Assembly (NCBI GenBank): GCA_052327205.1
Contig: JBMRGM010000043.1
Location: forward strand, 31,496,001-31,560,000
DNA: 64,000 nucleotides
Origin: Somniosus microcephalus
Lineage: Eukaryota
Reading direction: 5' to 3'
Both the position numbers and the translations under genes were made by a program. Shown one piece after another: positions 143-53,408 of the stretch. The notes beneath the pieces were generated by a model. It ran no database searches. It saw only the letters and a list, made by a program, of their open reading frames with translations, and was not told the origin of the DNA. Every line of letters begins with the position of its first letter. The first letter of the stretch is position 1.

Positions 143-376
143 CTTCTGGACCGGAAGTGCTGGTTAGTTATCCCAGCAGTGGAGTCGTAAAGGAAGGAGA
201 TACATTTAAACTGCAGGGCCGATACACTTATTGGTGGAAAAATAATGAAAAGTTACCTGAATCTTATGGGGATATTTATGAATCGCTTGTCGACAGTAGC
301 AGTGGCGGCTCTGACCAGTGTGAAATGTTTTCGGTAGAATGGCGGAGGAGTGAGACTTTGGAAGTGGTCACCATCG
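143..376 (+). CDS. Copy A Ig exon 1 (degenerate C2-type Ig domain)
   Basis: ttctgcAG acceptor, G/GTAGGT donor, 234 nt open; VKEGDTFKLQGRYTYWWKNNEK...SGGSDQCE...SETLEV. The B-strand Cys position reads Gly and YxC reads DQC. Confidence 0.7.
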
Positions 377-1088: not shown

Positions 1089-1349
1089 CTTCTGATATGA
1101 TTATAACTCTTAAAGTAAATCCAAGAGCCGCGCTGTCAGGAGAACCAATTATCCTGAATTGTTTGGTGTCTGACCAGAAAGGGACAGGATACTTCCTGTG
1201 GTATCAGAAAGAAGAGATAATAATTGGAATTTTTCAATCTCAATACATCATAGCTAAAGTGGATATTGCAGATGAGGCATCTTATCGGTGCGAACACAGA
1301 ATATGCTACAGGAAGTGGCTCTCACCGGAAGTTAACCTCACCATAACAG
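1089..1349 (+). CDS. Copy A Ig exon 2 (FcR D1-like)
   Basis: AG/GT bounded, 261 nt, open; GEPIILNC...WYQK...DEASYRC...SPEVNLTIT; paralog at 33063-33344. Confidence 0.85.
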
Positions 1350-2908: not shown

Positions 2909-3163
2909 ATCGCAATGTGGCCTTCCAGGTCGACCCATGTTCGGTTTTGGAAGGAGATGTTCTGAATCTGAATTGTCGGTACAGGAAGTATTATTTCTGG
3001 AAATATGTTGGCTTTTTCAAAGGCAATAGAAGGATCCACTCAATGAAGTTGAATCATTGGAATGCTCTGCATAGCATTAGGGTGAATAGTTCAAATGACA
3101 GCGGATCGTACCATTGTACTAATGACAAAAAGATTTCTCGAAGTGTTCATGTTCACGTTCATG
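2909..3163 (+). CDS. Copy A Ig exon 3 (FcR D2-like)
   Basis: AG/GT bounded, 255 nt, open; FQVDPCSVLEGDVLNLNC...VGFFKG...DSGSYHC...SRSVHVHV. Confidence 0.85.
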
Positions 3164-3508: not shown

Positions 3509-5103
3509 GTGTGGAGATGCCGGTGTTGGACTGGGGTGTACAAATGTAAGAAGTCTCACAACACCAGGCTATAGTCCAAAAGTTTTATTTGAAACCACAA
3601 GCATTCGGAGCGCTGCTCCTTCGTCAGGTGAAGTGGAGAGATGCCTATAGACACAGATTATATAGTCAGTGAATAATGCCAGATGATTACAGGTAATCTT
3701 TCTAACTGCCATTTATCACACCTCGGCAGAGAGATAATCACAGCAATCAAAGGTGTGAATGGTGTCCAAACAGGTCAGTCAGGAAAACATTACATCGAAG
3801 AACAATGAGGTGGGGTCACAAGGGCTAATATGTTGCAGATGCTGGGGTCTGTAAGAAAAACAAAAAGCAGACAAAAACATTTTCTTTGCTGGAAATCACA
3901 GCAGGTCCGGCCGCACCTGTGTAGAGAGAACAAGCCAACGACGACTCGAGTCTGGAAGACCCTACATCAGGTGCGGTTACATGTAGCGTGACATGATCCC
4001 GAGATCCCGGTTGAGGCCCTACTCATGAGTTAGGAACTTGGCTATCAGTTTCTGCTCTACCATTTTGCATTGTCGTGTGTCTCGAAGGCCGCCTTGGAGA
4101 ATGCTTACGTGAAGATCGGAGGCTGAATGTCCTTGAGCACATCGCTAAGTCCATCTCCACGCCTCCACTACTCACCTTCTAACAGCTGCCTAACCTCAAA
4201 CAGACCATTGTTCGCAGCTTTCAGGAGATCAGCGGCCATGACACCACACAACTCTGCCATGGCAACCTTTCCAACACATGCCAGATCATCAACACAGATA
4301 CCATCATCACACGTGAGGACACCACCCACCAGGTACATGGTACATACTCATGTGACTCGGCCAACGTTGTCTACCTCATACGTTGCAGGAAAGGATGCCC
4401 CGGAGCATGTTACATTGGCGAGACAATGCAGAAACTGCGACAACGGATGAACGCACACCACGCAACAATCGCCAGGCAGGAGTGTTCCCTCCCAGTCAGG
4501 GAACACTTCAGCAGTCAAGGACATTCGGCCTCCGATCTTCGGGTAAGCATTCTCCAAGGCGGCCTTCCAGACACATGACAATGCAAAATCATACAGCAGA
4601 AACTGACAGCCAAGTTCCGCACTCATGAGGACGGCCTCAACCGGGATCTTGGGTTCATGTCACGCTACATGTAATCCCACCTGACGAAGGGTCATCCAGA
4701 CTCGAGTCCTCGTTGGCTTGTTCTCTGTACACAGATGCGGCAGGACCTGCTGTGATTTCCAGCAAAGAAAATGTTTTTTTCTGTTTTTTGTTTTTCATAC
4801 AGACCCCAGCATCTGCAACATTTTACCCCTTGTGACCCCACCTCATTGTTCTTTGATGTAATGTTTTCCTGACTGACCTGTTTGGACACCATTCACACCT
4901 TTCATTGCTGTGATTATCTCTCTGCCGAGGTGTGATAAATGGCAGTTAGAAAGATTACCTGTAATCATCTGGCATTATTCTCTGACTATATATTCTATGT
5001 GTATAGGCATCTCTCCACTTCACCTGACGAAGGAGCAGCGCTCCGAAAGCTTGTGATTTCAAATAAAACTGTTGGACTATAACCTGGTGTTGTGTGACTT
5101 CCA
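3509..5103 (+). mobile_element. Penelope-like retroelement, 5'-truncated, with inverted pseudo-LTR
   Basis: GIY-YIG remnant near 4345-4580 (SCDSANVVYLIRCRKGCPGACYIGETMQKLRQRMNAH); arms 3551-4136 and 4515-5100 are inverted; imperfect TSD aat(t/a)accacg; absent from copy B near 37630. Confidence 0.85.
5020..5056 (+). ncRNA. Minimal type I hammerhead ribozyme motif in Penelope pLTR
   Basis: TCAC-CTGACGA-aGGAGCagcGCTCC-GAAA-GCTT-GTGA: core boxes, stem II, stem I (TCAC/GTGA), palindromic AAGCTT in place of stem III. Confidence 0.7.
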
Positions 5104-5809: not shown

Positions 5810-6086
5810 AACTCTTCTCCAAACCTAAACTGAGGACTGACCCTGCTGGTGAAATATTTGAGGGACACCAGTTAGTATTCATCTGTATTATTGAAACAAT
5901 GCCGGACAGTATTGAGCTTCAATACTCATTTTACAAAAATGGCAAAGCTCTGATATTGACTTCATACAACAACTTTAAGCTTAGAGACAGCTTCTTTGAA
6001 AGACTCGGGGACTTACCTGTGTGAAGCAAATGTTTCCTACCACGGTGTGAAAAAGAAGAGTGATGAGGTTTCCATTGAGGTTAAAT
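5810..6086 (+). pseudogene. Copy A Ig exon 4 (FcR/FCRL D3-like), frameshifted
   Basis: ELFSKPKLRTDPAGEIFEGHQLVFIC...LQYSFYKNG then DSGTYLCEA in another frame; 277 nt; 2 nt missing near 5982 relative to copy B. Confidence 0.85.
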
Positions 6087-7398: not shown

Positions 7399-7677
7399 AG
7401 GTCTTCTCCATACCTACAGTGAGGGCTGAGTCTGGAACTCAATTATTTGAGGGCCAACAGTTAAATCTCATCTGTTTTGTTAAAATATTTCGATCCAATA
7501 CTTCCTTGAGACTCATATTTTACAAGGATGGACAATCTCTCACTTCAGCGGCAGACCACAACTATTACATCAAGGAAACATCCCTGCCGGACGATTCGGG
7601 GATTTACCAGTGTGAAGCAATTAATTTGAACAGTGCTCAGTTTCTTTAGCTCAATCAGGTTTCCGTTTCAGTCGGAC
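7399..7677 (+). pseudogene. Copy A Ig exon 5 (D3-like) with premature stop
   Basis: EVFSIPTVRAESGTQLFEGQQLNLIC...FYKDG...DSGIYQCEA; 279 nt; TAG at 7647-7649 lies inside a micro-inversion. Confidence 0.85.
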
Positions 7678-8903: not shown

Positions 8904-9206
8904 TGCCTGTAGCTTGTGCTTCTCTCACTTCCAATACAAACAAAACGGAGATTTCAGCGGGGGACCGTCTCGTTCTCCAGTGCCTGGTGATGAGAGGCAC
9001 TGTACCACTTTTCCGCTGGTACCTGAACAACCAACTGTTAGAAAACACCAGCGATTCTTAACACTTCAACACGGACGGGAGTGAACTCATCATCAATTCA
9101 TTCCAGAAAGGGCATGGAGGGCGCTATCACTGTGTAGCGACCAACAGAGGGATGTATGAAAGGATTTTTAATACAACCAGCAATTATATCGATGTCACTG
9201 CACCAG
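8904..9206 (+). pseudogene. Copy A Ig exon 6 (membrane-proximal, FCRL D4/D5-like) with in-frame TAA
   Basis: VPVACASLTSNTNKTEISAGDRLVLQCLVMRGTVPLFRWYLN...DS*HF...GGRYHCVATN; 303 nt; TAA at 9059-9061; AG/GT bounded. Confidence 0.85.
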
Positions 9207-14235: not shown

Positions 14236-14355
14236 GATCAGCGCTGCGTTATGGTGGCATTGAGGTGGGGCAGGATGGATTCAATTAATTGCAGGTCTAA
14301 TATTCATTTTTAATGATGCACATGACATTCATGGGTTATGTTTATATTATTCCAG

Positions 14356-14457
14356 TGCAGGGTCCCACAACCGCGATCAGAGCCTCAGTTCTTACACTTT
14401 CTCTTGTCGCTGCCCTGATTGCACTGGTTCTCGTCAATCTTCCCAACAAGAAACAAG
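14356..14457 (+). CDS. Copy A transmembrane exon (splice donor mutated)
   Basis: VQGPTTAIRASVLTLSLVAALIALVLVNLPNKKQ, 102 nt; followed by TTGAGT where copy B has GTGAGT. Confidence 0.8.
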
Positions 14458-14973
14458 TTGAGTAATGTTTACAGACAGGTGACTGGCTCTACAGTCACGT
14501 GAAGGGATTCCGTGTATTCCAAGCACAGTTGCCACCTTCAAAATGTAACCATATGATTTGGGATAGATTCGAGTAGTCTGGGCTGGAGAAAGAAAAATGT
14601 AGTTTGCAATGATGAGATCAGAACAGATATGAGCTTAATTCTGGGGTGAACTTGCTCGGTTAACGAAATTGTTTGCCCCTGTGTGCTGTTCAGAATAGAT
14701 ACGTATCTGGTCGAGGGGCAGAACAATAAGTGACTGCATCACTCGTGGTTAGTGTGAGGAGATGAATTGGCCTAAAGGATTTGTAATTCAGTATATGGGA
14801 ACACCTTAAAAGTTTCTGCACGTCTTTTCTGTATTGATGCTGTATTAATAAATCATTGAATGTACGTTTGTAAATATATAGTATTGACATGAATGAATAT
14901 GTTTGCTGTAAAAACAAACCAACTGTGTTTACTGTACAACTTGCTGAATTAGGTCTCTTCCTATTTTATCCAG

Positions 14974-15004
14974 ACAATTCTTCAAAATTTTCACAACAGC
15001 TGGG
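14974..15004 (+). CDS. Copy A cytoplasmic mini-exon 1
   Basis: Polypyrimidine tract + CAG, GTAAGT donor; 31 nt, phase 1-2, DNSSKFSQQLG; paralog 50874-50901 differs by one codon. Confidence 0.7.
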
Positions 15005-15574
15005 GTAAGTCCACGAATGTGTTATATCAATAAGGCGTAGTAATATCCCTGAATATATTCAGTCTCTGTATAGCTGAATTAAACACTGTTAATGTTTTTG
15101 GGGTAGATTTTGAATTTGAATTGAGCTTAAGTCCGCCATTACGGATCAACTGCCTGTTATAGAAATCGTCCCATTTTATTTCATTTGAGTTCAATGGGAT
15201 TGAATAACATTTGCTTTCTACAACTGCTGTCGGTTCCACGATGCCACTTTTAAGCCCGGGCAGCAAGCTGAAAATATGCCCCTTTGATTATGGGGCTCAT
15301 CAGTAGCTCGCACTCACGCTATTATACTCTCAGCAGTCTATAAGATTTGATCATTTTCTAATTTATGTCCGTTGTAGCTGGACTTCCTAACTTAAATAAC
15401 GTGAAATTCACCCTGCGTGGTACAGTAAAAGGGATGATTACAAATCGTTTTACAGTCCGCACGATATTAAATTCCACTGACTTGTAAACGAATTTTGGGT
15501 GGATTGTAAAAACCGTCGGATATTCTCTGCGCACTGCTCTCCACCATCGTCCAAGAAGGCTTTAAAAACATGAG

Positions 15575-16370
15575 AAAATAAGATCATAAGAAATAGGTGC
15601 AGGAGTTGGACATTCGGCCCATCGAGCCTGCTCCGCCATTCAATGAGATCATGGCTGATCTTCTGCCTCATCTCCATTCACTGGCCCAATCGCCATATCC
15701 CTTGATGCCTTTACTAGTCAGAAATCTATCGACTTCTGTTTTGAATATACACAATGAATGAGCCTCCACAGCCCTCTGGCGTAGAGAATTCCAAAAGATT
15801 CACCAACCTCTGTGTGAAGAAATTTCATCTCATCTTAGTCCTGAATGGCCTTTATCCTGAGGCTGTGGCCTCTGGTTCTCGACTCCCCAGCCAAGGGAAA
15901 CATTCTCCCAGTATCCACCCTATCAAGCCCTGTAGTAATTTTGTATGCTACAATGAGATCCCCTCTCATTCTTCTGAATATAAGAGAATTCCTGCCTAGT
16001 TTACTCAATATCTTCCCACACGACAGTCCCCCCATCCCAGGAATCAATCTTCTGAACCTACGTTGCACTCCCTCTATGGCAAGTATATCCTTCCTTAGGT
16101 AAGGAGACCAAAATTGTACACAATACTCCAGGTGTGGTCTCAAAAAGTCCCTCTATAATTGGAGTAGGACTTCTTTACTTCTGTACTCAAATCCTCTTGT
16201 AAAGAAGGTCAGTATAACATTTGCCTTCCTAATGGCTTGCTGCACTTGCACATTCACTTTCACTGACTCATATGCAAGGACACCCAGGTCCCTTTGAGCA
16301 TCTGAATTCCACAATCATTCATCATTTAGGAAATAATCTGACTTTCTGTTTTTTCTACCAAAGTGGATAA
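15575..16370 (-). mobile_element. CR1-type LINE 3' fragment
   Basis: RPHLEYCVQFWSPYLRKDILAIEGVQRRF...RTRGHSL. Confidence 0.9.
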
Positions 16371-16608
16371 CTAACCTTAATTACATGCACAATCGCACTG
16401 CATATTAAATCTTAGAAAGCGTCAGTTCCCTGAGATTTACATGATGATTAAATTTGAGGATTGAAAAATGACCAAGCTCACTGAGTGATTGAAGAGTTTG
16501 GGGAATTAATTTCAAGAAGACTTTATATTTAATTTTATTTAAAAGCGATATTTCTGTTGTCGGTGATTTTTGTTAAACTTTATTCACTGAGAACATTTCT
16601 GCACTAAG

Positions 16609-16700
16609 GAAGGCAACTGGAAATAGATCTCGACCCCCGAGTGAAGAGAAGTCTGCAGACAATTCCGAGTATGCAGGTGTGGTATCTGCCCAAATCACCG
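16609..16700 (+). CDS. Copy A cytoplasmic exon 2 with ITIM-like SEYAGV
   Basis: Phase 2-1, continues the frame of the mini-exon: KATGNRSRPPSEEKSADNSEYAGVVSAQIT, GTAAGC donor; frame kept in paralog despite 6-nt indel. Acceptor (AAG) is weak. Confidence 0.65.
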
Positions 16701-16977
16701 GTAAGCTCGACCTGATCTGCATGTGATGAACTGTAGATAGCTCGGGGTATCATTTCCATTCAGCATCAATATCACTTACACTTTCTCAATCTCTATGTCT
16801 ATGTCAAGTCTACTTCTATGACTCTCTCAATCGAACAGCATCTCTCATTCTAAATCTATCTTTCTCTATTGCACTAACTCACTATCTCTATGTACCTATC
16901 TATCTCTACCTCTATCTCTGTATCTCTTTCGGTATCTTTCTATATCCCTTTCTATTTCTGTCTCTCCTATCTCTATT

Positions 16978-18949: not shown

Positions 18950-20330
18950 ATAACAATCTCCATGTCTATGTCTAGCTCTACCTATATATTTCTATCTCTA
19001 TCTCTAAATTTCCATCTATCTCTCCTATCTATATCTCTCTGTATATAGCAGTCCCTCTCATTCTATCTGTATCTCTCACTCTAACTCTATCTCTCCCTAT
19101 TGATCTAACTCTCTACCTCTATGTCCATATCAATCTCCCTCTCTCTATCTGTATCTCTCTGTATCTGTCCATATCCATTTCTATTTCTATCTCTTCTGTC
19201 TCTTTGTATATCCAAGATTCTCTCTATTCATAGAACACATTACATATATGTGGGCAGCACGGTGGCATAGTGGTTAGCACTGTTGCCTCACAGCGCCAGG
19301 GACCCGGGTTCGAATCCGGCCTCGGGCGACTGTCTGTGTGGAGTTTGCACATTCTCCCCGTGTTTGCGTGGGTTTACTCCGGGTGCTCCGGTTTCCTCCC
19401 ACAGTCCAAAGATGTGCGTGTTAGGTTGATTGGCTATGATAAATTGACCCTTAGTGTTAGCGGGATTAAATACATGGGGTTACGGGGATAGGGTGGGGTA
19501 TGTGTTGGTGTAGGGATAACGGGGATCGGGTGGGATATGTGTCGGTGCAGGCTCGATGGGCCGAAATGACCTCTATCTGCACTGTGTGGTTTCTGTGATT
19601 TCTGTGATATGCCTCTATTGGTATCAGTATGCACGTTATTTATTTCTGTCGCTATCTCTAGCTCCAGTACGTTGTCTATGAGATTCTCCAAATTTGTTTC
19701 CATTTCAATACCCTCTCGGCCAACGTGCCTATCTCTATCTATGTCGATTAGTATCTCTATCTTCATGGCTATCTCTAGCTCTTGCTATAACACAACTATC
19801 TCTAACTCCATCTCTCCAATGTCAATCGTTATGTGTATCCCAGTCTCTCTCATTGTATCAGCATCTCTCACTCTATTTTGATATATCTAATCTCTTTCGC
19901 TCTATCTATCTATCTATGTCGCTCTATCTCTATCTCTAGCTATCTACTTGCATCTATCTCTATTGTTCTCTATCTCTCTCTACCTCCACATCTCACTATC
20001 ACTATCTCTATCTAGGTCCATTTAGATCTCTACCTCTATCTGCACTATCTCTACGTCAATCCCATACTCTTTCTATATATTTATATAGCTCTATTTGTAT
20101 CAATTCATTTATCTGTATCTCTCTCTAGCTCTAGTTGATTCTCTACCAGCATGTCCAAATGTATGTTCGTTTCAATCCTCTCGCTGCCTCTGTGCCTATC
20201 ACAATCTATGTTGTTTAATATCCCTCTTTCACAGTATTCTATCTCTATCTCTATTTCTAACACTATCTCTGTCTCTATCTCTATCTCCATCTATAATCTC
20301 TAATCTCTATTTCTGTCCCTAATCTGTCAT
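18950..20330. repeat. Degenerate (CTAT/CT)n low-complexity tract (also 16780-16975, 54910-55148, 55900-57090)
   Basis: Long runs of tctatctc variants, interrupted by a SINE. Confidence 0.85.
19252..19607 (+). mobile_element. tRNA-derived V-SINE (HE1-like), full length
   Basis: GGGCAGCACGGTGGCATAGTGG A-box, GTTCGAATCC B-box, V-domain TGTGTGGAGTTTGCACATTCTCCCCGTG, CR1-like tail; near-identical copies elsewhere. Confidence 0.9.
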
Positions 20331-23300
20331 TAATCTCTGATATTACAATATTACCATTATGCACACCTGTTGATTGCTAAACTGTGTAAATCCTTAGTAA
20401 ATGGATCTCGACAGCAAGAAAATGTGCATTACGTAGAGGAAACAGGAAGCTAAATTATGAAAATTTGGCAGTTACTTTACTTGGAGACTCTTAAGAGCCG
20501 AGATGGTATTACTTAGCCACCAATAGATTGAATAAAATAAAAGTGATCTTACTTTCGTTAGAAATCTCTTTCTTAATCCTTATATTCGATCTGAAAATTA
20601 TTTCCTTGTGAGAATATATCAAACGAGTAATGGAAACGGACTGATAATATGCAATACAATTGAGATTGTTGCATTGATAGAATGTTAATTTCCTTTCATG
20701 GTAAGTTTGAATCTTCTGACTATTACGTGGCTCCTGTGACACGAATCATCAACTGGAAGGGAATCGAGAGCCTGGGCACCTAGAAGAAAAATACGGATGA
20801 TCGGAGTCTACAGGAAACTGCATAACCTTCCAGAGGCATTCATTGAAGCAAGCATGTTATTCTACAATTGGCTAAAGAAGTTTATTGCAAGGAGAGCACC
20901 TCATTTTGAGATGTTCACTCAAAAGAAAAACTGTGGAATCGTCACGTTTTACCCAAGAATAGGATCTTTCTTCACAAGATCCTCTATGTACAGAACCTGA
21001 TTCATCTCTCTGTTGTATACAGCTTTTGATTGATCATCACAGAGAATAAGTAGCCCACCTCGAACAACTTAATCATCTGTTTGTGGATGTACATGCCGAT
21101 GGTCAATGATCAATTGAAACCTTTGGTAAACTAGCTTCCCGACTGTGATTGGAATATTTTCATTCGGACCTAAATGACTTTCTATCGCTTGGACATTTCT
21201 CTTGTATACACCAGATAATTAACTGCTTATCTCCCAGATGTTTCGGGACATCTTCTGATTGACAGATTTCACCTGAAATTTTCGTGTTGGTTCTAATTGG
21301 TTGCTTATAACTTGGGTGTATCATTTCAGCTACTGACTGATTGGATTAAGGTCTGGATATTTTCATGTATAAGCCTTATACTTTCTGAAGCTTACTGAAT
21401 ATTTGTTACCCGAAAAATTCTCTGCTGGACAATTTCTTTCAGAGTCATGTTTCCTTGATTATAACATATTGACGTCGGAGAACACTGGCTGATTTTAACT
21501 CGAGTGTATCATTTCAGCTCCTGATCAGTTGGCTTCGGGCCTCGATAGTTTCAGGTAAAAGCAGGTTGGCTGAATGTCACCTTGGCACTGTCTTTTGGCA
21601 GCTGAATTCATAATTCTAACCGGAATAATTCTCAGCTGGACGCCTTCGTTCACTGACGATATCCAAACATTTCTTCTGGAATTCGGAAAAAACTGATTGA
21701 TTGATTGTTTCCACCATAGGCTCTTGAAATTTAACAATAATCGACATTACTATTGCAGGCATCACTTATCATCAGGAGAATATAACTAACCCGTTGAAGA
21801 CTGTTCCCTATTACTAAATGAACAACGCAATAATTAGCGCATTCTGCATCTCAATTTCAGGTGGAATCAATGTCTGAGGAAGGGAAAATTCTGACTGAGC
21901 TGTAACATGAATCGTCCTTCTTACACTAGAACTAAGTAGATGAATGATTAACTATTAGAAAGACTAAACATGAAATAGCGGCATTGGTTATTGTTGAACA
22001 GACTGGGGGAAGGTGTCGTTTCTATGGTTGAAATGGTGAAGAAGCACGAAGTTTTGAACTTAAGCATAATGTGGAGATGCTGTGTCGGATAGTTTGAACA
22101 CGAGCATCTGTTCTGATACACTTGTTTAGTAAACCTTCCTGTGTGTACCGTGTCTAGACTCACTGAAAGTGATGGGAATGGACTCTTGTATGTTTAACGC
22201 TGTTATGTGAAAATATTGCACCAGTTAGTCTAGGCACAGTAACTGATTGCAGGAATTCGACAGCGGTACTTGTGATTTACTAATAGTTTGAGTCTAGTAC
22301 GATTTCAGCTGGATGATAGCATAAATGCAGTCAACGCTATTGATTAGGGACGAGAATGATATTGAAGCATATTTAATAGCTACTCACAGATTGATGTGGT
22401 GTTAATGATTCACAGCATAATAGTTTCCCCACAGCGAGAGGAAGGCAGGATTGATGCTTGACACATGGCGTTTTTAAAGCCTTGAAGAAAGACTAGGGAG
22501 GATATTATTTTGTGATTCTATGTCGAGGAGAACAGATGATTCCCTGACAGACTGCAGTCTACAGACTTGAACAATAGTGTTATCCTTTGCAGTTAAAATC
22601 GAGAGAAAGGGACATGGAGGAGATTTCATTGGTTTATAACACATTAGTAACAATATTAATTTTTAAATAAAGAATAACAAAACTGAGTAAAGATAATAAT
22701 CATTGCTATTCAGATTGTTGCTACTTAACTGATATTTTGGTAATGCTTTGTACAGGAGCGGAATTATTGATTCACTGCCAGTCTGCTCACGGACATAAAT
22801 TATCGAAATAAAAAAAAGCAGATAAAGTGAATGACTTACAGGCAGGTTGGGGATGAAAGTTATTACCAGTTGCAAAATCTTGGACACCTGAATTATAATT
22901 TGAGCAGTCGCACTGGACAGGTTTGATGCCAGAATGAGTTCAGGAACTAATAGAGAGACAGAAGAAAGGGACGATATCCGATATTTACCCAAATTATATG
23001 GAAATTTAGTGACTGCAGGAAGATTGAGTGGACCTGTAGTAAGATTAGCAGAGAGGCTGAAGGTCACTTTTTAAGATGCATCAGCAAACGTGGGGCTGGG
23101 CAGCATTGGGGATTGCTGGTACGCTGGGAATAAGCTTTTACAAATTCAAAGACAAAGATTTGACAAGCCCAACAAACAACGCTTTGCAGGGAATGTCATT
23201 CTTTAGATTGTTAGGGTGATTTTTGTTCGTTGTCGAAAGTCACTGGCTTCAGACCAGAGCAGATTTGTCATTAACAAATAACGGAATTATGACGCTGTCG

Positions 23301-23508
23301 ATGACGTGAAAACAAATGGATTTTTGTAAAGATTAACTAATGACTCGGGGACGGTCACACCAAGGAGGTATTATTTATTCATTGATAGTAGGCAGTTAAA
23401 CCGAATATCAAACACATGGGAACCGTACAATATACTTAAATGTCTCCATCGCATTTGCAGTCTGTAGTGTGTTGACATTTCTCGTTGACAATCTGGCAGA
23501 AAGAGACG

Positions 23509-24058
23509 TCACAGAGCAGTTCCGTGCAATAGATTTTTAAATAGGTTTACGGACTCCCAGACCGCCTGTTTGTTTTGCAGTCTGGAGGAGTCCGTGACTC
23601 ATGTTTATGTCGAGTGCGAGAGGTTGCAGCCCCTCTTCCATTATTTAAGGGGGCTGCTCCTCAAGTTTTGGTTGCACTTCAGTCCCACGCTCCTGATCTA
23701 CGGTCACCCGGTGCGGAGGGGAGCGGGCAGGTCGGAGGACCTCCTCGTGGGTCTGCTCCTGGGCCTGGCAAAGGTAACCATCAATCGGTCCAGGCAGCGG
23801 GCGGTCGAGGGGGTCGTCCAGCCAGATTGCCTCCCGCGCTTCCGCGGCCATGTTCGCGCCCGGGTGGCCCTGGAGATGGAGCACGCGGTCTCCGCCGGCA
23901 CGCTCGAGCAATTTCGTGACCGGTGGGCGCCGCGGGGACTGGAGTGCATAATAGGTCCAAATGACCAAATTTTAATTTAATTTCTGATTTGGGTTATTAA
24001 AAGTTCTTAAAAGTTACTGGATTTTTAGTTGCATTTGTTTTTGATTTAACACAAGAGG
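23509..24058 (+). mobile_element. L1/Tx1-clade LINE 3' end
   Basis: C-terminal CCHC-type motif (FCSLEESVTHVYVEC), GC-rich ORF 23570-23980, 11-bp TSD AGAAAGAGACG (23498-23508, 24059-24069). Confidence 0.8.
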
Positions 24059-25029
24059 AGAAAGAGACGAACACGGGGACCCGAACACGGGGATGTTGCT
24101 AACAGACAGAGCAGTCGCTATGCTGATTTACAGGCGCATAGTTTGAGCTCTACTTTGCAGGAGATTTTCCTACCAGCGAGCTTCCACTGGCAGAATTGAT
24201 CACAGATTGAATGGAGAAATTGTACTATTCATGGACTATCTGGGCAGGAGATTTCCATGTTGCGGCACTCATCATGTACATTGGAGTTCAGCCCGTCAGT
24301 TGGAGGGATACTGTGCGGACGTGACAGTGCTGGCGATATTGATAGGTTATGGAAAAGCACGACCGGGGATTTTCATACACTGAAGCGAGGTAAGATACTG
24401 CTGGGTGACAGATATACTGTAAATGTAAACTCCTGATGATTTCTAGGCCTATTTCTCTGAGGCATTATTTGTGTGCAAAGCAGTGCTTTTATTGGTGAAA
24501 GACGAATATCCTATACCAGGCGGTGTGGCAGCATTGTCACTGCACACACGTTTGAAGAAGTCTATTTATATGATTGTAATCAGGGGAGAGTTATTACTGA
24601 TGATTGACATTCTGGTGTGGGAGGAGTGTCTGTAATAAACGCACGTGTTAGTTACCAGCTTCCCTTTGACACGGGTATTCAGAGTTCACCCCCTCATTAG
24701 AAAGATTCTGGCGTCCATTGAATAGGTCGCAGTGTTCATTAAATAACTGAGCTTGTTTTATAGTTGTAGGCTCTATTTCGAATGGCAGCTCAGAATAATC
24801 TAAAGTGCTGCAATCAATTAATTGCTCCTTTTAACGATTACATTTAGTAAATGTATCTTGGCTATTGAATTGCCAGGTGGTTTTTCGTTTCTCTGCTGTT
24901 TCTGGCGCAACTGAATTATTTACAAACAACAATCTATTTTCAATTTCGATATGAATACTGCAATATATAATGAAATGTTGTGATCCATTCAGACGCTGTC
25001 TTTAAATATTTTACAAACTGAAAGCTGAC

Positions 25030-25640
25030 GGTACCGGTTCAGGTAGTGTATGGCATAACCAAAGGGCAGGACCTGTATAGGTAGCATGTTTATCAGTCCC
25101 AGTACTTCATGTAGTTTTGACAGTCCTGTACAAGCAGGACACTGTAGGTACTGATCACAGAGCTGTACAAAGAAGGTAGCGTGGGAAATAATCACAGATC
25201 AGTATCAGTAGGCTGGTGTAGGTGATAATATAAAGTCTGAACCTATATGACAGTGCAGATATTAATCATAGTGGTGCACCGGTAGGATAGTGTTGGTATA
25301 ATCAGGAATCTGTATATTTTGCCGTCTATGTACTGATACCAGGTCTGTCCAATTAGGGCAGTGTCGGTACTACTCACAGACCTGTACACAGACGGCGCTG
25401 TAAGTATTAATCATAGACCAGTACCAATAGAACAGTATATGTACTACTTATGCACAGAATAATCATAGTCATGAAACAGTAGTACAATTTAGATATTAGT
25501 CATGGAGCATTACCAGTAGAACAGTGCTGGCGCTAATCAGAAAAGCGGGTATTATAGTTAATAATTACACACTCGGACCTCAGCATAGGTACTGATCATA
25601 GCCCTGTACCAATAGGGCAGTTTCGGTGCACATCATTGAA
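25030..25640. repeat. Degenerate ~36-bp minisatellite (also ~28250-28900, ~60640-61240)
   Basis: Recurring unit approximating GGACAGTATAGGTACTAATCATAGACCTGTACCAATA. Confidence 0.7.
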
Positions 25641-26280
25641 TAAAACATCTGGGATCTTGGGCTTCATAAAGAGAGGCGTAGAATACAAAAGCCAGGAAGT
25701 TAGGCTAAATCAATATAAATCACTGATTCGTCCCCAGCTAGAGTCTTGTGTCCAATTCTGGGCGCCGCACTTTAGGAAGGACGTGAAGTCTTTGGAGAGG
25801 GTGCAGAAGTGATTTATTAGAATGGCTCCAGGGATGAGGGTATACAGTTACGCGGATAGACTAGAGCAGCTGTGGTGGTTCTCCTTAGAGCAGAAAACGC
25901 TAAGAGGAGATTTGACAGAGGTATTTCAAATGACGAAGACTTTAGGCAGACTAAACCAAGAGAAACTCTTTCCAATGACTGAAGCCTCGATAACCAAAGG
26001 GCAGAAAAATAAGTTGATTGGCAAAAAAAAGAGGCGACATGAGGAAAAACATTTAACACAACGAGTGTTTAGGATATTGAATGCATTGCCCAATAGGGTG
26101 GTGGGTGTAGATTCAATAGCAGCCTTCAAAAGCGAATTGGATAAATACGTGATGTAGAAACAAACTGCATGGATATGGGGCAAGAGCAGGGGAGTGGGGC
26201 AAACTGGATTGCTCTTGGAAAGAGCCAGCACAGACTCGATGGACCGAATAGCCTGCTTCTGTGCTGTACTATCCCAACTT
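25640..26280 (+). mobile_element. CR1-type LINE 3' fragment predating the duplication
   Basis: LIRPQLESCVQFWAPHFRKDV..., TQRVFRILNALP; same insertion at ~61245-61860. Confidence 0.85.
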
Positions 26281-29200
26281 CTATAAAGTTATAGGCTCGT
26301 GCCAGTAGGACAGTATAGATACAATTTATAATGATGGGGCAAATGTTTCACTGTCATACTTATTGATTGTATTCACACGTATAGTGTCACTGATATGGTT
26401 AATAGAGTCATACAACACTTACTCAGTAATTACAAAGGTACACCACATCAATAACAACATGCATGGACACATTTTTGAACACAGTCAGCACTGAATGTGT
26501 AAGATATTCCATTGACCTGCATGTCTGCAATTAGAAGGCTAAACTCATTTAGAGTGCAAAAATTAATGTTCAATTATAATTAGAATATTGGTTCTGGTAG
26601 AGCAAAGTTAACGGTTACCTGGAGTGAGGCGGATAGTGGGATTAGAATGGCCAGCTAAAGCAGATACACCTGATAAGCCTGTGCTTAGGCTAATTTGTGA
26701 GTTGAATCACCTCTTTTGTAAAACAGCGGGTTAATCTCTCGGGAGTTTAATGGTGCCAGAGTGAAAAGCTTTCAGTGGTCACAGATCCCAGTGCTATCTG
26801 CCCTTCCCCTTGTTTCCCCCTCTACCGTTGTGCCAGGCCACACACACAGAGCTTGGTGACCGCTTCCGTAAACCCGTGAAAAAAACAAGCATTCAGCCTG
26901 GGGCCACACATCAGGCCCTGTGTTAACGGTACAAGCTGCGGTTACAATAAATCATATTTAAAACAGTTTCCAGAGATGTCTCCCGCCTGTATTAAAACTG
27001 TTCGCTTCAGAGAAGAATTTATTTTGAAAGTTCCAGGGCTCATTTCACTTTTCAGCGTTAGGGTGGACTCGTCATCACGTTAGGTTTAAGTTCCAGTTTT
27101 CTCCAATATGGTCAGAAGTCACAGTGATCTCAGTGCGCAGTCGCCTGGTGCATGGGCAGTGAGCTCCACAGCTGCAGAGTGCTCCCGGGGAACTCGCTCC
27201 AGCCGCTGTCTCCTCATTCCCCATAAGTACAGACTCGGGATCTGCGCGTGTGGGCGTTTGGTACTGAAGAAGTAGAACAGTGTCAGCGGCTGAATGTGGG
27301 CGGGTACATTTGTCGGGAGCTGGAGTGGGAAGCGGAACAATGCGCTTGGGAATAGATTGTTCTGTGTTTGACGGAATCGACCTGTTCTGGCGCTCGGTTG
27401 AAATGTTCACCCAAACCTGACTAAATAGAGGCTGCATTGAATCAAAGAGCATTATGATTCATGGGTCATTTATGTTAGTCTAAAAGGGTTAACACAGCCA
27501 AGTATCAAGCAATGGAGTCATTTTCTGCTCTCCGCCCGAGCTTATAACTGACCTTCTGGAATCGCCACCGTTAATGGAAACGCTCGATCATCATTTTCAG
27601 TGATTAAGGTTGAATATAAAGTGGGCGGTTTCTCTAGAACCCCACTTTTAAGTCTCGGCGCCAAGTTTAATGCATACCACATTATATTAAAGACAAAGTG
27701 ACCTATAAATTGGTCTGGGTGACTGCTAGTTCATTTACCCGGGGTTTGGAAGTGTGCAATCATAATTGAGTAATTAAATGGATGGATAAATAGAAATTTC
27801 TTTGATGAAGTAACAGCAAATGTTCATGACATTAGTGCGTTACTGTTGTGTATAGACTTTGCAAAAGCGCTTAATGGCGTTCCACATAATAGACTTGTTT
27901 GAGAAATAGAATCCAAAGTATTATGGACAACATAAGGGGCGTCAGCTTAGCACAAGAATGGACACGTGACCTTCCATTGCCACCATTGTCGCTATGGCTT
28001 TTCGGGATATAGACTTATTGTTCGTTAATCAATTGATTACTATAGATGCATCTTAAAGGACATATTCTAAAGGATGCCATACCTGTCGTTTAACATATTC
28101 CAATTTGTACTTACTTTTTGCTTCTTATTGTTATCGCACATTGTCAGCCTGTTTTATCTACCTACCGATATATCTCTTTGTGTTTGTCCTACTATCTATC
28201 TAACTATCTGTCTGTTTATTCATCGTCAGTATAACAAATAATCAAAGGCAGGCACCAATAGGACAGATAAGGATCCAGTCATAGGTTGTATCAGTAAAAT
28301 AGTACAGGTATTAACTATAGACCTGTATCATTAGGACAGCATAGTTGATAAACATAGGCCTCTTCGAGGAGGACAATCAAGTTTGAAAAATGTGCCTGTA
28401 ACAAAACGACAGTATAGTTACTCATCAAAGACCTGCAACAATAGGACAATATAAACAGTCATCAAAATACCTGAGCCAGTATGATAGTTTAGGTATTAAT
28501 CATAGACCTGCACCAATAGGACGGTATAGATAATGATTAGAGACATGCAGCAGTCGTACATTGCAGGCATTAATCATAGACCTGTATCAGAAGGACTGTG
28601 AATGTACTGAGCATTGACCAGCACCTGTAGGGATATATATGTGGTCATTACTAACTGCATGAGTAGTAAATTACAAGTTCATTATCCAGTGTCTCTGTCT
28701 CGGTTCCAGTTATTGACCAATACCAATAGATTTCAATTAGAGTTCGCCACAGTAGTATAGAGTGGGTATTTATCGGAGATCTGGGCAATGGGGTCAGTAT
28801 AGCTACTAAAAGCTGACTTGTACTAGAAGTGGAGTCAAGTGCTGATCATATACATTCTGCAGGAGGAGAGTCAAGGCAGCAATCATAGACCTGCACCTTT
28901 CGGTGATACCTAGAGTGAGCCCTAGAGAGGAACAATACTGTGTTGAATCACCTATTTGTAAAACATTGCTGACTGGGTTAGACTCTCAGGACTTAAATGG
29001 TTAATTGTGCCAGGGTGCAACAGATTCAGTGGTCTGATGTTTCACTGGTACCAGCCTTTCACCTCTACCGTTGTACCAGGCCACACATACAGTGCTGGGG
29101 TTGACCACTTCCCTAAGCCCGTGAAAAAAACAAGCCTTCAGCCTGGGGTCACAGACCAGGCCAGTCTCGATGTTAACGGTATAAACTGCGGTTAGAATAA

Positions 29201-29659: not shown

Positions 29660-29690
29660 ATGAAGCACATCTGTCGCCTTCTGATCTTCT
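29660..29690 (+). CDS. Copy B signal-peptide exon S1
   Basis: ATG, MKHICRLLIF, T/GTAAGT donor (phase 1); paralog at 63327. Confidence 0.8.
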
Positions 29691-32241: not shown

Positions 32242-32271
32242 TGCAAATTACTCATCAGGCGACCACACAAG
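32242..32271 (+). CDS. Copy B signal-peptide mini-exon S2 (30 nt)
   Basis: tcttctctctttcAG acceptor, G/GTATGA donor, phase 1-1, LQITHQATTQ; joins S1 to the Ig exon in frame. Confidence 0.75.
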
Positions 32272-33062: not shown

Positions 33063-33344
33063 CTTCTGATATGAGTGTAAGTCTGAAAGTCGAGCCAAGA
33101 GCCGCGCTGTCTGGTGCAAATATTGCACTGAGGTGTTTGGCGCCTGACCAGAAAAGGGGAGGAAACTTCCATTGGTATCGAAACGAAAAGTTAATAGAAG
33201 GACATTCTCAATATGTGTACTTCATAATTCAATCTGAAGACACCATTGTTAAAGTGGATATTGCAGATGAGGCATCTTATCGATGTGAACTCATAAGAGA
33301 CAACAGGAAGTGGGTCTCACCGGAAGTAATGGTCACCGTAACAG
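33063..33344 (+). CDS. Copy B Ig exon (paralog of A Ig2), intact
   Basis: AG/GT bounded, 282 nt, open; IALRC...WYRN...DEASYRC...SPEVMVTVT. Confidence 0.85.
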
Positions 33345-37060: not shown

Positions 37061-37308
37061 ATGGCGATGTATCCTTCCAGGTCGACCCACCTTCGGTTTT
37101 GGAAGGAGATGTTCTGATTCTGAATTGTCGGTACAGATACTATTATTGGAGCAATAAAGGTGTTGGCTTTTACAAAGGCAATAGAAGGATTCACTCAATG
37201 ACGTTGAATAATCCTAAAGCATTAGAGTGAAAAGTTCAAAAGACAGCGGATCGTACCATTGTACTTTTGACAAGATGAAATCTCGAAGTGTTCATATTCA
37301 CGTTCAGG
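37061..37308 (+). pseudogene. Copy B Ig exon (paralog of A Ig3), frameshifted
   Basis: 248 nt; ~10 nt missing near 37215 relative to copy A, TGA at 37228-37230; DSGSYHC resumes in another frame. Confidence 0.85.
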
Positions 37309-40853: not shown

Positions 40854-41131
40854 AACTCTTCCCCAAACCTAAACTGAGGACTGACCCTACAGTTGAAATA
40901 TTTGAGGGACACCAGTTAGTATTCATCTGTATTATTGAAACAATGCCGTACAGTAATGGGCTTCAATACTCATTTTACAAAAATTAGCGAAGCTCTGATA
41001 TTGACTGAATACAACAACTTTAAGCTCACGGAGACAGCTTCTTTGAAGGATTCGGGGACTTACCTGTGAAGCAAATGTTTCCTACCGCGGTGTGAAAAAG
41101 AAGAGTGATGAGGTTTCCATTGAGGTTAAAG
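40854..41131 (+). pseudogene. Copy B Ig exon (paralog of A Ig4), dead
   Basis: Acceptor AG>TG at 40852-40853; +1 insertion giving TAG at 40985-40987; 2-nt loss in the YLC codons (tacctgtgaagc). Confidence 0.85.
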
Positions 41132-42439: not shown

Positions 42440-43095
42440 AGGTCTTCACAGAAATCACAGAAACCCCACAGTGCAGATAGAGGCCATTTCGGCCCATCGA
42501 GCCTGCACCGACACATATCCCACCCGATCCCCGTAACCCCTACACCAACACATATCCCACCCGATCCCCGTAACCCCTACACCAACACATATCCCACCCT
42601 ATCCCCGTAACCCCACGTATTTAATCCCCCTAACACTAAGGGTCAATTTATCATAGCCAATCAACCTAACCCGCACATCTTTGGACTGTGGGAGGAAACC
42701 CACGCAAACACGGGGAGAATGTCTGTGTGGAGTTTGCACAGTCACCCGAGGCCGGATTCGAACCCGGGTCCCTGGCGCTGTGAGGCAACAGTGCTAACCA
42801 CTATGCACCGTGCTGCAGGTCTTCTCCAAACCTACATTGAGGGCTGAGTCTGGAGCTCAATTACTTGAGGGCCAGCAGTTAAATCTCGCCTGTTTGGTTA
42901 CAATATTTCGATCCAGTACTTCCTTGAGACTCGTATTTTACAAAGATGGACAAGCTCTCACTTCAGCGGCAGACCACAACTATTACATCAAGAAGATATC
43001 TCGGCCGGACGATTCGGGGATTTACCAGTGTGAAGCAACTACTTTCAACAGTGAGGTGAAGAAACTGAGCAACCAGGTTTCCGTTTCAGTCAGAG
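42440..43095 (+). pseudogene. Copy B Ig exon (paralog of A Ig5), interrupted by a SINE
   Basis: Original acceptor at 42438-42439, SINE 42448-42816, then the full open 279-nt exon 42817-43095 with GTGAGT donor. Confidence 0.85.
42448..42816 (-). mobile_element. HE1-like V-SINE inserted in a coding exon
   Basis: 8-bp TSD AGGTCTTC (42440-42447, 42817-42824). Confidence 0.92.
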
Positions 43096-44892: not shown

Positions 44893-44994
44893 TGCAGATT
44901 CTCACAAACACGATCAGAGCCTTCGTTCTTACACTTTTCCTTATGGGTGCCCTGATTGCACTGGTTTGGGTCAATCTTCCCACCAAGAAACAAG
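44893..44994 (+). CDS. Copy B transmembrane exon, intact
   Basis: VQILTNTIRAFVLTLFLMGALIALVWVNLPTKKQ; ttccAG acceptor and GTGAGT donor; 102 nt. Confidence 0.85.
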
Positions 44995-45613
44995 GTGAGT
45001 CATGTTTTACAAGCAGGTGATTGGCTATATAGTCACGTGAAGGGATTCAATGTATTTCATATTTAATTGCCACATTCAAGTTGTCAGCATATGATTTGGG
45101 AAAGAGACGAGTAGTCTGCGTTGGAGAAAGCAAAGGTTGTTTGCAATGATGAGATCAGAACAGACAGGAGCCCAGTTATGGGGTGAGTTTGCTCGGTCAA
45201 GCGAATGTGTTCCCCTGTGTGCTGTAGAGATTCGAGTATCTCTGGTAAACAGGATCGAATGCAAACCAATATGGTGTGTATACCATGTTTAATTGGAGTT
45301 TAGCACGGAATATAACACACTAGGAATACAGCAAAAACATACGACCGTGACAAGCAGCTGGTACCAGACCCTATTGGATAGACGGCTGGTGTGCGTGAAT
45401 AGTTCTTTGTCTTCTGGCCTTTATCTCTCTCCCTCTGGGGCCTTCGATGGTGAGTGTGGGATCACTCTCAAACGTGTGTTCGACCAGCTTGTCGTCTCAT
45501 TGCAACTTCTGCTCGGCTCACCCCTCCACCGTCTGTGTAGGCAAGCACTCGGTGTGTCACTTTCATTCTCTTTTTAGAGGTGTGCCTGACGCCAAGTTAT
45601 TGACAAGACCATT

Positions 45614-48600
45614 TGATACGCTTATCAATTACTTCATAAAAGGTGATGAGTCGAAGAAGAGATGACGAGTCGAAAGAAGAGATGAATAAGGCTTTTATTA
45701 GCTAAGAAGAGACCATGCTTCTTCGTGAGTGACTGAACAAGTCTGAACGAAACCCACACAGTGGTGGGTGGAGTCAGCTGAGGCATGCCTCCATACACAG
45801 CGCCACCCAGAGGTGGCAATATACAATACAGTGGTTTACCACATTCACCCCTTGTTTAATGTGAAGTCCGGCGGGGTGAAGGGTACTACAAGTTAAGTCT
45901 ATCAGGAGGCCTTGTCTGACGTCTTGATCGTCGTGGTGGCGGCGGTGGTGTTGCAGCATCCGACGTCGGGTCTGGTGTCTGGGTGGTTGGCGAAGATTCC
46001 TGGGGCTTTGGCATGCCGTCTGCAGGGGTTGGGTTGGGAGGGGTGGTGGGGGATAACAGTGGTAAGGGGGATAATGGTGGTAAGGGGGATAACGGTGGTA
46101 ATTCAGGGGTACCCGAGGGTGCGAGATCTCGTATGGAGACCGTGTCCTCCCGCCCGTCTGGGTATGTCACCCAGGCATACTGGGGGTTGGCGTGTAGGAG
46201 GTGCACCCGCTCGACCAGGGGGTCCGTTTTATGCGTCCTCACGTGCCTCCGCAGTAGGACGGGCCCAGGAGAAGTCAACCATGCCGGTAGCGAGGTTCCC
46301 GATGTAGACTTCCGGGGGAAAACGAACATTTTCTCATGAGGGGTCGCATTAGTGGCAGTACAAAGCAGTGACCGAATGGAGTGGAGCGCTGCAGGGAGGA
46401 CCTCCTGCCAGCGGGAGGTCGGAAGGCCCTTAGATTTTAGTGCTAAGAGGACTGCCTTCCAAACCGTCGCGTTCTCCCTTTCCACCTGGCCGTTCCCCCG
46501 GGGGTTGTAACTGGTGGTCCTGCTCGAGGCGATACCTCTTGTTAGCAGGTACTGCCGAAGTTCGTCGCTCATGAACGATGAGCCCCTGTCGCTATGTATA
46601 TAGCTGGGGAACCCGAACAGAGCGAAGATGTCATTCAGACACTTGATGACCGTGGTACTGGTCATGTCTGGGCAAGGGATGGCAAAGGGGAAACGGGAGT
46701 ACTCATCAACTATGTTGAGGAAGTACACATTGCGGTCAGCGGAGGGGAGGGGCCCTTTAAAATCGACGCTCAGGCGTTCGAAGGGGCGGGTGGCCTTGAT
46801 CAGGCTTGCTCTGTCCGGCCTGTAGAAGTGCGGTTTGCACTCGGCGCAGATTTGGCAGCTCTTGGTCATGGTCCTGACCTCCTCGATGGAGTAGGGCAGG
46901 TTACGGGATTTGATAAAATGGAAAAACCTGGTGACCCCCGGGTGGCAGAGGTCATTGTGGAGGGACTGCAGCCTATCACTCTGTGCGTTGGCGCATGTAC
47001 CACGTGATAGGGCATCTGGGGGCTCATTGAGTTTCCCTGGCCGATACAAGATATCATAATTGTAGGTGGAGAGTTCGATTCTCCACCTCAAGATCTTGTC
47101 GTTCTTGATTTTACCCCTCTGCTTATTATTAAACATAAAAGCTACTGAACGCTGGTCAGTGAGCAGGGTAAATCGTTTCCCGGCCAGGTAATGCCTCCAG
47201 TGACGCACCGCTTCTACAATAGCCTGGGCCTCCTTTTCGACGGAGGAGTGTCTCGTCTCGGGGCCCTGGAGGGTCCTTGAGAAAAAGGCCACGGGTCTGC
47301 CCGCCTGGTTAAGGGTCGCGGCTAGGGCAAAGTCGGAGGCATCGCTCTCCACTTGGAAGGGGATGGACTCATCCACCGTGTGCATTGCGGCCTTCGCGAT
47401 ATCGTTCTTGATAAGAGTGAAGGCTGCACATGCCTCTGGTGTCAGGGGGAAGGAGGTGGCTTTGATGAGGGGCCTGGCTTTGTCTGCATAGAGGGGCACC
47501 CACTGGGCGTAGTAGGAGAAAAACCCCAGGCATCTCTTCAGTGCTTTTTGGCAGTGGGGAAGGGGTAGCTCCATTAGGGGGCGCATTCTGTCGGGGTCGG
47601 GCCCGATGACTCCGTTCTCCACCACGCAGCCGAGGATGGCCAGGCGCTTGGTGTGAAACATACATTTTTCCTTATTGTACGTTAGGTTCAGCCGTTGGGC
47701 CGTACGGAGGAAATTTGCTAGATTAACGTCGTGGTCCTGCTGGTCGTGGCCGCAGATGGTGACGTTATCCAAATAGGGGAAGGTTGCCCGCAGCGCGTTC
47801 TGGTCAACCATTCGGTCCATCTCCCTTTGGAAGACCGAAACCCCGTTGGTGACGCCGAAGGGGACCCTAAGGAAGTGGTAGAGGCGGCCGTTTGCCTCGA
47901 AGGCAGTATACTGGCGGTCCTCATGGCGGATGGGCAGCTGGTGGTACGCTGACTTAAGGTCGATGGTGGAGAATACTTTGTATTGCGCAATCTGATTGAC
48001 CATATCAGATATGCGAGGGAGGGGGTACGCGTCCAGCTGGGTGTACCGGTTTATGGTTTGGCTGTAGTCGATTACCATGCGGCGTTTTGCAGTGGTTTTA
48101 ACGACTACAACCTGGGCTCGCCAGGGGCTAGTGCTACCTTCGATAATGCCCTCCTTCAATAGCCGCTCCACCTCAGAGCTGATAAAAGCTCTGTCCCCGG
48201 CATTGTACCGCCTGCTTTTGGTAGCGATGGGTTTACAGTCGCGGGTGAGGTTAGCGAACAGGGGAGGGGGGGGGACTTTTAATGTGGAAAGGCTGCAGAC
48301 TGTGAGTGGGGGGAGGGGTCCACCGTATGCTAGTGTGACACTCTTAAGGTGGCACTGAAAATCCAACTCTAGCAGGACGGCAGCGCAAAGACGGGGCAGG
48401 ACTAGCAGTTTAAATTTTTTATATTCAGTGCCCCCTACTGACAGGGTCACCACACAGTAGCCGCTGATGTCCCTTGACTGGGACTTGGACGCCATAGAAA
48501 TGCGATGGTGCGTTGGCAGAATCGTGAGGGAGTGGCTACGTACCGTGTCGGGGTGGACGAAACTCTCTGTGCTCCCGCTGTCGATCAGGCAACTGGTGGC

Positions 48601-49902: not shown

Positions 49903-50873
49903 CCATTTAACCTATAGATGTTCCTCTAAAGTCTCATCATCCTGTAACACATCATGTCCTTCATCCAATTGCCACTATTGTTCAATCTTTCTGAAGGTTC
50001 TTCCTTTGGAATTCGTGTCTTAGCTCTCTTGTCCCTCTCCTCCTTAACCCAGCATGTACAAGGGCCGACACAATCCCTGTTGTTCATGGCCCCAGCCAAA
50101 GCTGTCACACATTCACCAGTCACTATTTCACCTTCATCTAGCCAACGGCCCATTCTAAGATGGATAATTCAACCTCCTCAAATTCCTTTCATTCTATGTC
50201 TTTTCCAAATTAATTTTTAATTAACTTTGCAAGCAGTTCTGCTAAACAAACTTCAAATTCTATCTGTAGAGATTATAATATGGTTATTAGTAACAATAGT
50301 CGAAACAAAGGTTGGGACTTCACTGTCCAAATTAACAAAGTCAAAACCCAAAATTACATACAACAGATATAGCAGGCCTGGCTGGGCGATCCTATGGACC
50401 CCTGTGTGGAATGTTTATGCCTCACCTAATCTAACCGATTAAATTCATTTTCTCAAATTATAATGCACGTTTTCCAGGAAAAGGAAACTTCATCAGTCAC
50501 TCACTTCTCTCATGCCGAAACATACAGCCATGTAAACACAGTATTATTGGTGTAGCCATATACATTTTTAGCCACCCCTAGTTTCTAACAGTGCTTTTCA
50601 GAATAGGTATGCATCTGGGCAAGGGGCAGAACAATAAGTGGCAGCATCACTCGTGGTTAGTGTGAGGAGGTGATGTGGCTTAAAGGATTTGTAATTCACT
50701 ATATGGGAACACCTTAAAGGTTTCTGCACGTCTTTTCTGCATTAATGCATTTAATGTACGTTTGTAAATATTTAGAATTGAGATGACTGAATATATTTGC
50801 TGTTAAACAAAGCCAACTGTACAACAATATTTACTACAACTTGCTGAATTTGGTCTCTTCCTATTTTATCCAG

Positions 50874-50901
50874 ACAATTCTTCAAGAATTTCACAACTGG
50901 G
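50874..50901 (+). CDS. Copy B cytoplasmic mini-exon 1
   Basis: 28 nt, phase 1-2, DNSSRISQLG, canonical sites. Confidence 0.7.
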
Positions 50902-53322: not shown

Positions 53323-53408
53323 GGAGACAACTAGAAACAGACCTCCAGGTGAAGAGAAGTCTGCAGACAATTCCGAGTATGCAGCTGTGGAATCAGCGCA
53401 AAGCACCG
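53323..53408 (+). CDS. Copy B cytoplasmic exon 2 with ITIM-like SEYAAV
   Basis: 86 nt, phase 2-1, ETTRNRPPGEEKSADNSEYAAVESAQST, GTAAGC donor. Confidence 0.65.

Follow-up and report, generated by a model that had tools for sequence, protein, structure and literature searches.

Two disabled Fc-receptor-like gene copies of a shark carry the transmembrane arginine of a probable activating branch that lacks distal ITIM exons

In the KIR and Ly49 families, as set out in one account (PMC2213150), a transmembrane (TM) charge was gained, ITIMs were lost and the module was spread by recombination, in that order, and rat Ly49 relatives in which the charge and the ITIM occur together are taken there for the earlier stage. 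The shark gene lineage described here appears to resemble the activating KIR (short-tailed) and Ly49 receptors of that account in acquiring a TM charge by few base changes, losing ITIMs and passing the module to other ectodomains by recombination (PMC2213150); it differs in its FcR-like Ig ectodomains, in an outer-edge Arg where activating KIR have Lys and in the loss of ITIMs as whole exons. Xenopus offers a second comparison: NxxR TMs are described there behind FcR-like ectodomains, and they associate with FcR-gamma (PMC2413239); PMC4536121 counts such TMs. The XFL TM1 class likewise belongs to an expanded FcR-like array in which Arg-TM and uncharged-TM genes are intermingled, with Arg near the TM N-terminus; as presented in that source, it is homologous to LRC TMs, with NxxR and a short tail on the TM exon (PMC2413239), whereas the shark Arg TM comes from an uncharged TM and is followed by two separate tail exons. 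An FcR-type ectodomain joined to an LRC-type TM is thus not new, having already been described in Xenopus (PMC2413239).

A third likeness is to KIR2DL4 and chicken CHIR-AB, in which a TM charge and a Tyr motif occur in one gene. Both of these are expressed, working LRC receptors, whereas the copies analyzed here are disabled, non-LRC and match the Tyr motif loosely only. CHIR-AB is described as bifunctional (PMC6760009). As for cartilaginous fish, FcR-like genes are said to be absent by a 2014 study (PMC4016189) and a 2026 review (PMC13337447), and the former reports no FcR-gamma or LRC homologues there either. The presence of FCRL-type genes in sharks is nonetheless not new, because automated annotation already uses FCRL names, as does a bamboo shark single-cell paper that names fcrl3 and fcrl5 in B cells (PMC11372145). 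A search of the literature, in which most papers were seen at the level of their listing, brought up no account of an Arg-TM lineage among the FcR-like genes of sharks.

The window, by which we mean the whole 64,000-nucleotide stretch analyzed, is C43:31496001-31560000 in the 6.4-Gb genome of Somniosus microcephalus, and it contains two copies, both on the plus strand, of one multi-Ig receptor gene (Table 1). Both are members of a large array in which Fc-receptor-like genes of the shark are repeated in tandem; when the TM exon served as a DNA query, 40 of 46 candidates were scored as matches, and every one lies on C43. Neither window copy has Ig exon type G, and exons A and F are missing from copy 2 as well. 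An insertion at 3550-5101 has 587-bp inverted terminal repeats (93%) and looks retroelement-like by eye. A second, GC-rich insertion of ~5.3 kb (45241-50591) lies in the TM-c1 intron of copy 2 and is apparently missing in the duplicate, whose TM-c1 intron is 4.3 kb shorter. On the 3′ side of c2, the two copies share stretches that are ~85% identical (19607-27466 and 56364-63060); a new last exon for Arg genes would be expected in these stretches, but none was identified there, and a candidate near 20700 was rejected because it has no AG acceptor and its paralogs carry stops.

Table 1. Exons and related features of the two receptor gene copies (positions are those of the window; all on the plus strand)
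Copy	Feature	Position	Remarks
1	Ig exon A	143..376 (+)	Open; first Cys replaced by Gly
1	Ig exon B	1089..1349 (+)	Open
1	Ig exon C	2909..3163 (+)	Open; best PDB matches Fc-gamma-RI/IIa
1	Ig exon D	5810..6086 (+)	2-bp deletion, frameshift; duplicate open here
1	Ig exon E	7399..7677 (+)	In-frame TAG 7647-7649, common to duplicate
1	Ig exon F	8904..9206 (+)	In-frame TAA 9059-9061, common to duplicate
1	TM exon QGPTTAIRASVLTLSLVAALIALVLVNLPNKKQ	14356..14457 (+)	Arg codon AGA 14379-14381
1	TM donor	14458..14459 (+)	TT, not GT
1	Tail exon c1	14974..15004 (+)	31 nt
1	Tail exon c2	16609..16700 (+)	SEYAGV at 16664-16681
2	Signal-peptide exon 1	29660..29690 (+)	MKHICRLLIF; intact
2	Signal-peptide exon 2	32242..32271 (+)	30 nt; intact
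2	Ig exon B	33063..33344 (+)	Sole usable Ig exon in copy 2
2	Ig exon C	37061..37308 (+)	10-bp deletion, frameshift; duplicate broken too
2	Ig exon D	40854..41131 (+)	1-bp insertion leading to TAG 40985-40987, plus 2-bp deletion
2	Ig exon E	42440..43095 (+)	SINE-like insertion of ~377 bp just past acceptor
2	TM exon QILTNTIRAFVLTLFLMGALIALVWVNLPTKKQ	44893..44994 (+)	Canonical splice sites; Arg codon AGA 44916-44918
2	Tail exon c1	50874..50901 (+)	28 nt
2	Tail exon c2	53323..53408 (+)	SEYAAV at 53372-53389

The preliminary description of this locus had joined an FcR-type ectodomain to an LRC-style TM, and its ectodomain assignment was borne out, in that the best PDB matches were Fc-gamma-RI/II for two Ig exons and weak and mixed for a third. 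Exon E of copy 2 matched Fc-gamma-RI domain 3 (E 2.6e-11), with FCRLA (3e-8) and FCRL5 also among the best, exon C of copy 1 matched Fc-gamma-RI/II (~5e-5), and exon B of copy 2 gave the weak, mixed matches. A nearly identical counterpart of this exon B is present in a second organism. The signal peptide is encoded on two short exons of 31 coding nt and 30 nt; the FcR-like rule, as stated for Xenopus, is a split signal peptide on 30/21 bp exons (PMC2413239), and the second exon here is not 21. The nearest named proteins, annotated ‘Fc receptor-like protein 2/3/5’, come from three sharks (Heptranchias perlo, Heterodontus francisci, and Mustelus asterias) and are 60-70% identical to an Ig exon of the neighbouring gene. 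They have the same TM and tail layout, with SEYAVV in Heptranchias; those with a TM have Thr where the window copies have Arg, and the long-tailed ones bear three to five Tyr motifs.

Both motif pairs noted earlier are also real. A six-frame search recovered AIRASVLTL at 14376 with SEYAGV at 16664, and TIRAFVLTL at 44913 with SEYAAV at 53372 (Tyr codons TAT at 16670-16672 and 53378-53380, respectively), and no other match to these motif patterns in the window. The Arg does lie at the outer TM edge: in a simple Kyte-Doolittle hydropathy scan, applied to the copy 2 TM and the commonest Arg TM, it comes third in the highest-scoring 21-residue window, at the position that Thr occupies in the uncharged paralogs. 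If splicing is canonical, the TM exon, the 28-31 nt c1 and the Tyr exon c2 share one frame. The ITIM consensus is S/I/V/L-x-Y-x-x-I/V/L, and SEYAGV and SEYAAV do match it, in its loose form only. A loose ITIM arose in 128 of 4174 open shuffles of the Tyr exon, and SEYAxV is homologous to SEYAVV, FEYAVV, and FQYAVV of other sharks; judged on its sequence, the Tyr motif is not a chance match.

The description of the TM as LRC-style did not hold, as the window exons encode a TM that belongs to the family itself, with Arg in place of Thr, and have neither DYT nor the C-terminal acid. LRC TMs are defined, in the source that we follow, by NxxR, DYT and a C-terminal acidic residue (PMC6557307). NxxR occurs in 2 of the 21 Arg TMs, only in the copy 2 lineage (copy 1 reads TAIR), while DYT and the acidic residue occur in none of them. 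At the DNA level, the window TM exons are 81% and 74% identical to a Thr-type paralog versus 29-32% identical to two TM exons of LRC style that lie elsewhere on C43. A protein search with the Arg TM, a weak test given the short query, returned no match, nor did a PDB search. The same contig does contain a separate LRC-style TM, QYHTVPLVRLCLSAFVVIVMVIFIVEHF, which lies behind LRC-like Ig exons, has Pro instead of Asn at -3 and carries its tail on the TM exon; the Arg-gene tail is on separate exons. Between 23 and 42.5 Mb of C43 there are 38 matches to Arg-bearing short-tail TM exons of the QYHTVPLVRLCLSAFVVIVMVIFIVEHF type and a large LRC-like Ig exon family (150 scored of 623 candidates) that is also found on C39-C41 and others.

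We read 35 TM exons, comprising all 21 of the Arg type, 13 of the 19 other matches and one more; a separate pattern search likewise gave 21 Arg-type TMs. AGA goes with a C-end NLP or NRP in those 21 and ACA with KLR in the other 14, and the Arg TM reading frame is open in every one of the 21 copies. The Arg group forms one clade in the DNA tree (support 100/100; 34 rows) and again in a midpoint-rooted tree of 17 protein rows (100/99) that includes Thr-type rows of other sharks; the five rows taken from other proteins group with Thr. Among the 26 closest homologs listed, some of them isoforms of one gene, none of the 21 with a TM has Arg at this position; two listed homologs have Lys about two residues earlier. 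Since the homologs are without Arg and the Arg group is one clade, we infer that Thr would be ancestral and Arg derived. These comparisons trace the Arg TM back, by one base change, to the uncharged TM of the family and give the Arg module a single origin.

The gain of charge is accompanied by a shortened tail. Of the Thr genes, all nine that were followed as far as the next gene have exons c3-c5, and three more, followed part of the way, have c3-c4; the motifs of these exons are VTYSLV or IIYSVV, LVYSEV, VTYATV or VTYAIV, and VYEN. None of the 21 Arg genes shows c3-c5 (12 read to the next gene and 9 for 7.7-15.6 kb), the two window copies included, which have none before the next gene. The remaining Tyr motif is likely the stub of a longer, inhibitory tail. 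It has itself changed from Tyr to Ser in 11 of the 21 Arg genes, which make up the largest clade (SESAGV), and is retained in the other 10 as SEYAAV (four), SEYAGV (two), SKYTGV (two), SEYAVV (one), and SEYEAV (one). Counted by lineage, Tyr is kept in six of seven, which speaks against a general loss and for Tyr loss as one event. The proximal motif varies in Thr genes as well (FECAVV and FEYAVG). The next gene (C43:31559267-31584400, from window position 63267) is of the Thr type, with six open Ig exons; Cys takes the place of its proximal Tyr, and its distal ITIMs are kept.

The reading that we consider reasonably probable is that both window copies are disabled members of a lineage that gained Thr>Arg, lacks the distal ITIM exons and likely formed an activating, FcR-gamma-pairing branch, with SEYAxV a vestige of an inhibitory tail. 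In this sequence of events, one inhibitory gene would have gained the TM Thr>Arg change and lost the distal ITIM exons c3-c5. The Arg is predicted to pair with the TM Asp of FcR-gamma and would signal through the FcR-gamma ITAM, and the Arg module may have spread by duplication and recombination. One clade would then have lost the last Tyr, and many copies, the window copies among them, would have decayed. A TM exon with Asp that is FcR-gamma-like lies at C40:10607082, on another contig than the array, and a CD247-like one with Asp at C14:86659861; both are assigned by likeness. When the copy 2 TM was modelled together with an FcR-gamma TM dimer, the score was 0.08, which speaks neither for nor against pairing.

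A rather unlikely alternative, and the one that survives best, is that the Arg module was never activating, being a 3′-truncated, dead or dying duplicate in which Thr>Arg arose through drift and then travelled with segmental duplications. No selection could be detected on the Arg TM: dN/dS is ~0.96 (seven lineages), the Arg codon would have stayed unchanged by chance with P ~0.2, and neutral decay is therefore a real rival. TM donors are altered in two of the seven lineages, the basic stop-transfer KLR has become NLP or NRP, and 20 of the 21 Arg genes have a lesion. By a hand count of Ig exons, in which duplicates are not independent, 24 of 66 are broken in the 13 Arg genes whose ectodomain was read (the remaining eight all have a LINE-disrupted last Ig exon) versus 9 of 82 in 12 Thr genes. 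However, all Ig exons are open in only 4 of those 12 Thr genes and the other 8 have a broken one, so that a dead exon is no proof of a dead gene. Drift also sits poorly with a TM frame that is open throughout the Arg group, with Arg at TM position 3 as in FcR-gamma-pairing receptors, with a charge gain that goes together with the loss of every distal Tyr exon and with the occurrence of the module behind at least four different ectodomains. The idea that two Arg copies are orphan TMs was rejected, as divergent ectodomains were found. Returning to an activating branch, its best candidate for a working receptor would be the SESAGV clade, in which two fully read members have six open Ig exons and the TM, c1, and c2 sites are canonical; by leaving out their dead Ig exons, some Arg genes, such as the 11 copies of this clade, may still be functional.

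A dual activating/inhibitory receptor, as put forward in the preliminary description, does not stand for the window: both copies are multiply disabled and probably non-functional, the canonical ITIM exons are missing in the whole Arg lineage, and the largest clade has SESAGV. Taken together, 6 of the 10 Ig exons of the two copies are broken, in addition to the TT donor. Copy 1 has one frameshift, two stops and the GT>TT change after the TM exon, because of which its TM cannot splice canonically to SEYAGV; read-through past the TM exon ends in KKQVE and a stop, and use of a GT one base upstream shifts the frame, with SEYAGV then unread. In copy 2, three of the four Ig exons are out of frame, exon E whichever AG is used. 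The Arg and the Tyr, said to be in the same receptor, were thus demonstrated together in neither copy, given that both are disabled and the copy 1 TM donor is TT. Conservation of the two residues in intact paralogs likewise fails, as the four array genes with wholly open ectodomains have Thr.

A working dual receptor elsewhere, or as an exon-skip product, appears doubtful to us; it would pair with FcR-gamma and recruit SHP-1/2 through the single Tyr, either from a one-Ig product of copy 2 or from a gene at 21.5 Mb. In copy 2, signal-peptide exons 1 and 2, Ig exon B, and the TM, c1, and c2 exons show AG/GT sites throughout, and their joins preserve the reading frame; as Ig exons are phase 1-1, exon skipping is possible, and copy 2 could yield a 194-aa one-Ig product with Arg and SEYAAV. 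The Tyr kept in most Arg lineages and the precedents of KIR2DL4 and CHIR-AB, as these are described (PMC2213150; PMC6760009), point the same way. Copy 2, however, has to skip three exons, copy 1 has lost its donor and cannot reach SEYAGV in frame, and the motif has Ser at -2, no second motif beside it and, with variants such as ECAVV, EYAVG, and HADV, the greatest lability of the family's motifs. In two RNA runs with the same label, of each of which 24-31% was compared with 14250-16850 at 80% likeness, ~5 reads fell on the TM exon in one run and none in the other; no c1 or c2 read, no TM-c1-c2 junction and no spliced Arg-gene transcript was among the reads shown. As the TM-exon reads differ from copy 1 and a fraction of each run was covered, this RNA result carries no weight either way; for exon B of copy 2, no RNA match was listed.

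The second candidate for a dual receptor lies 10 Mb away at C43:21515598 (gene within C43:21533838-21511700), where the Arg TM, c1, and c2 with SEYAVV have canonical sites and no lesion was seen. Two open LRC-like Ig exons lie 14-18 kb upstream, and within 50 kb no further TM exon was convincing; signal exons were not securely found, and the splice of the Ig exons to the module is putative. These Ig exons gave weak matches to CHIR-AB1, PIR-B, and LAIR1 and fell with the Atlas clusters KIR3DX1, IGSF1, A1BG, and LILRA6 at 0.90-0.92; the first also has a weak Fc-epsilon-RI match, and a search with the LRC-like Ig exon returned no match. The module shares with copy 1 a collinear upstream intron stretch that is 86-92% identical and starts in a LINE, which suggests a graft. 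A sister gene (96%) has a different, uncharged TM candidate. At C43:25273699-25303900 and 30272132-30302300, the Arg module follows a third ectodomain type, with four open Ig exons (47-60% to P0118) and a broken fifth; the c2 acceptor of these two modules is shifted by one base, and SKYTGV may be out of frame. The 21.5 Mb copy would keep the dual-receptor idea alive, and a broader version of it, that sharks reinvented the KIR2DL4/CHIR-AB design as an FcR-like-born cassette of Arg TM and proximal Tyr, spread by LINE-mediated grafts of which at least one (21.5 Mb) is a working dual receptor, strikes us as equally doubtful. If true, the 21.5 Mb gene would join an LRC-like ectodomain to an FCRL-derived TM, the reverse of the chimera first proposed.

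That the lesions are assembly errors in otherwise intact copies is scarcely credible: three are 1-2 bp indels, the usual long-read error, and two of these are missing from the duplicates, but the duplicates 290 kb off, which were assembled separately, carry all lesions of both copies except two 2-bp deletions. Shared in this way are both nonsense codons and the TT donor of copy 1 and, in copy 2, the break in exon C, the insertion in exon D and the SINE-like insertion, so that most lesions are not assembly errors; adjoining genes, moreover, have wholly open exons. The Cys missing from exon A of copy 1 is kept in the duplicate (C43:31785977).

In sum, against the claims of absence cited above, an FcR-like array occurs in this genome, together with an FcR-gamma-like TM exon and Arg-TM genes that are LRC-like. 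Since the Arg TM came from an uncharged TM within the family, it seems that an Arg at the outer TM edge can arise de novo, without borrowing of the conserved NxxR exon. Collectively, if the activating branch is read correctly, the array would offer a well-resolved inhibitory-to-activating switch in a cartilaginous fish, since the ancestral state can be seen side by side with the one-base change, the loss of ITIM exons and the later loss of Tyr.
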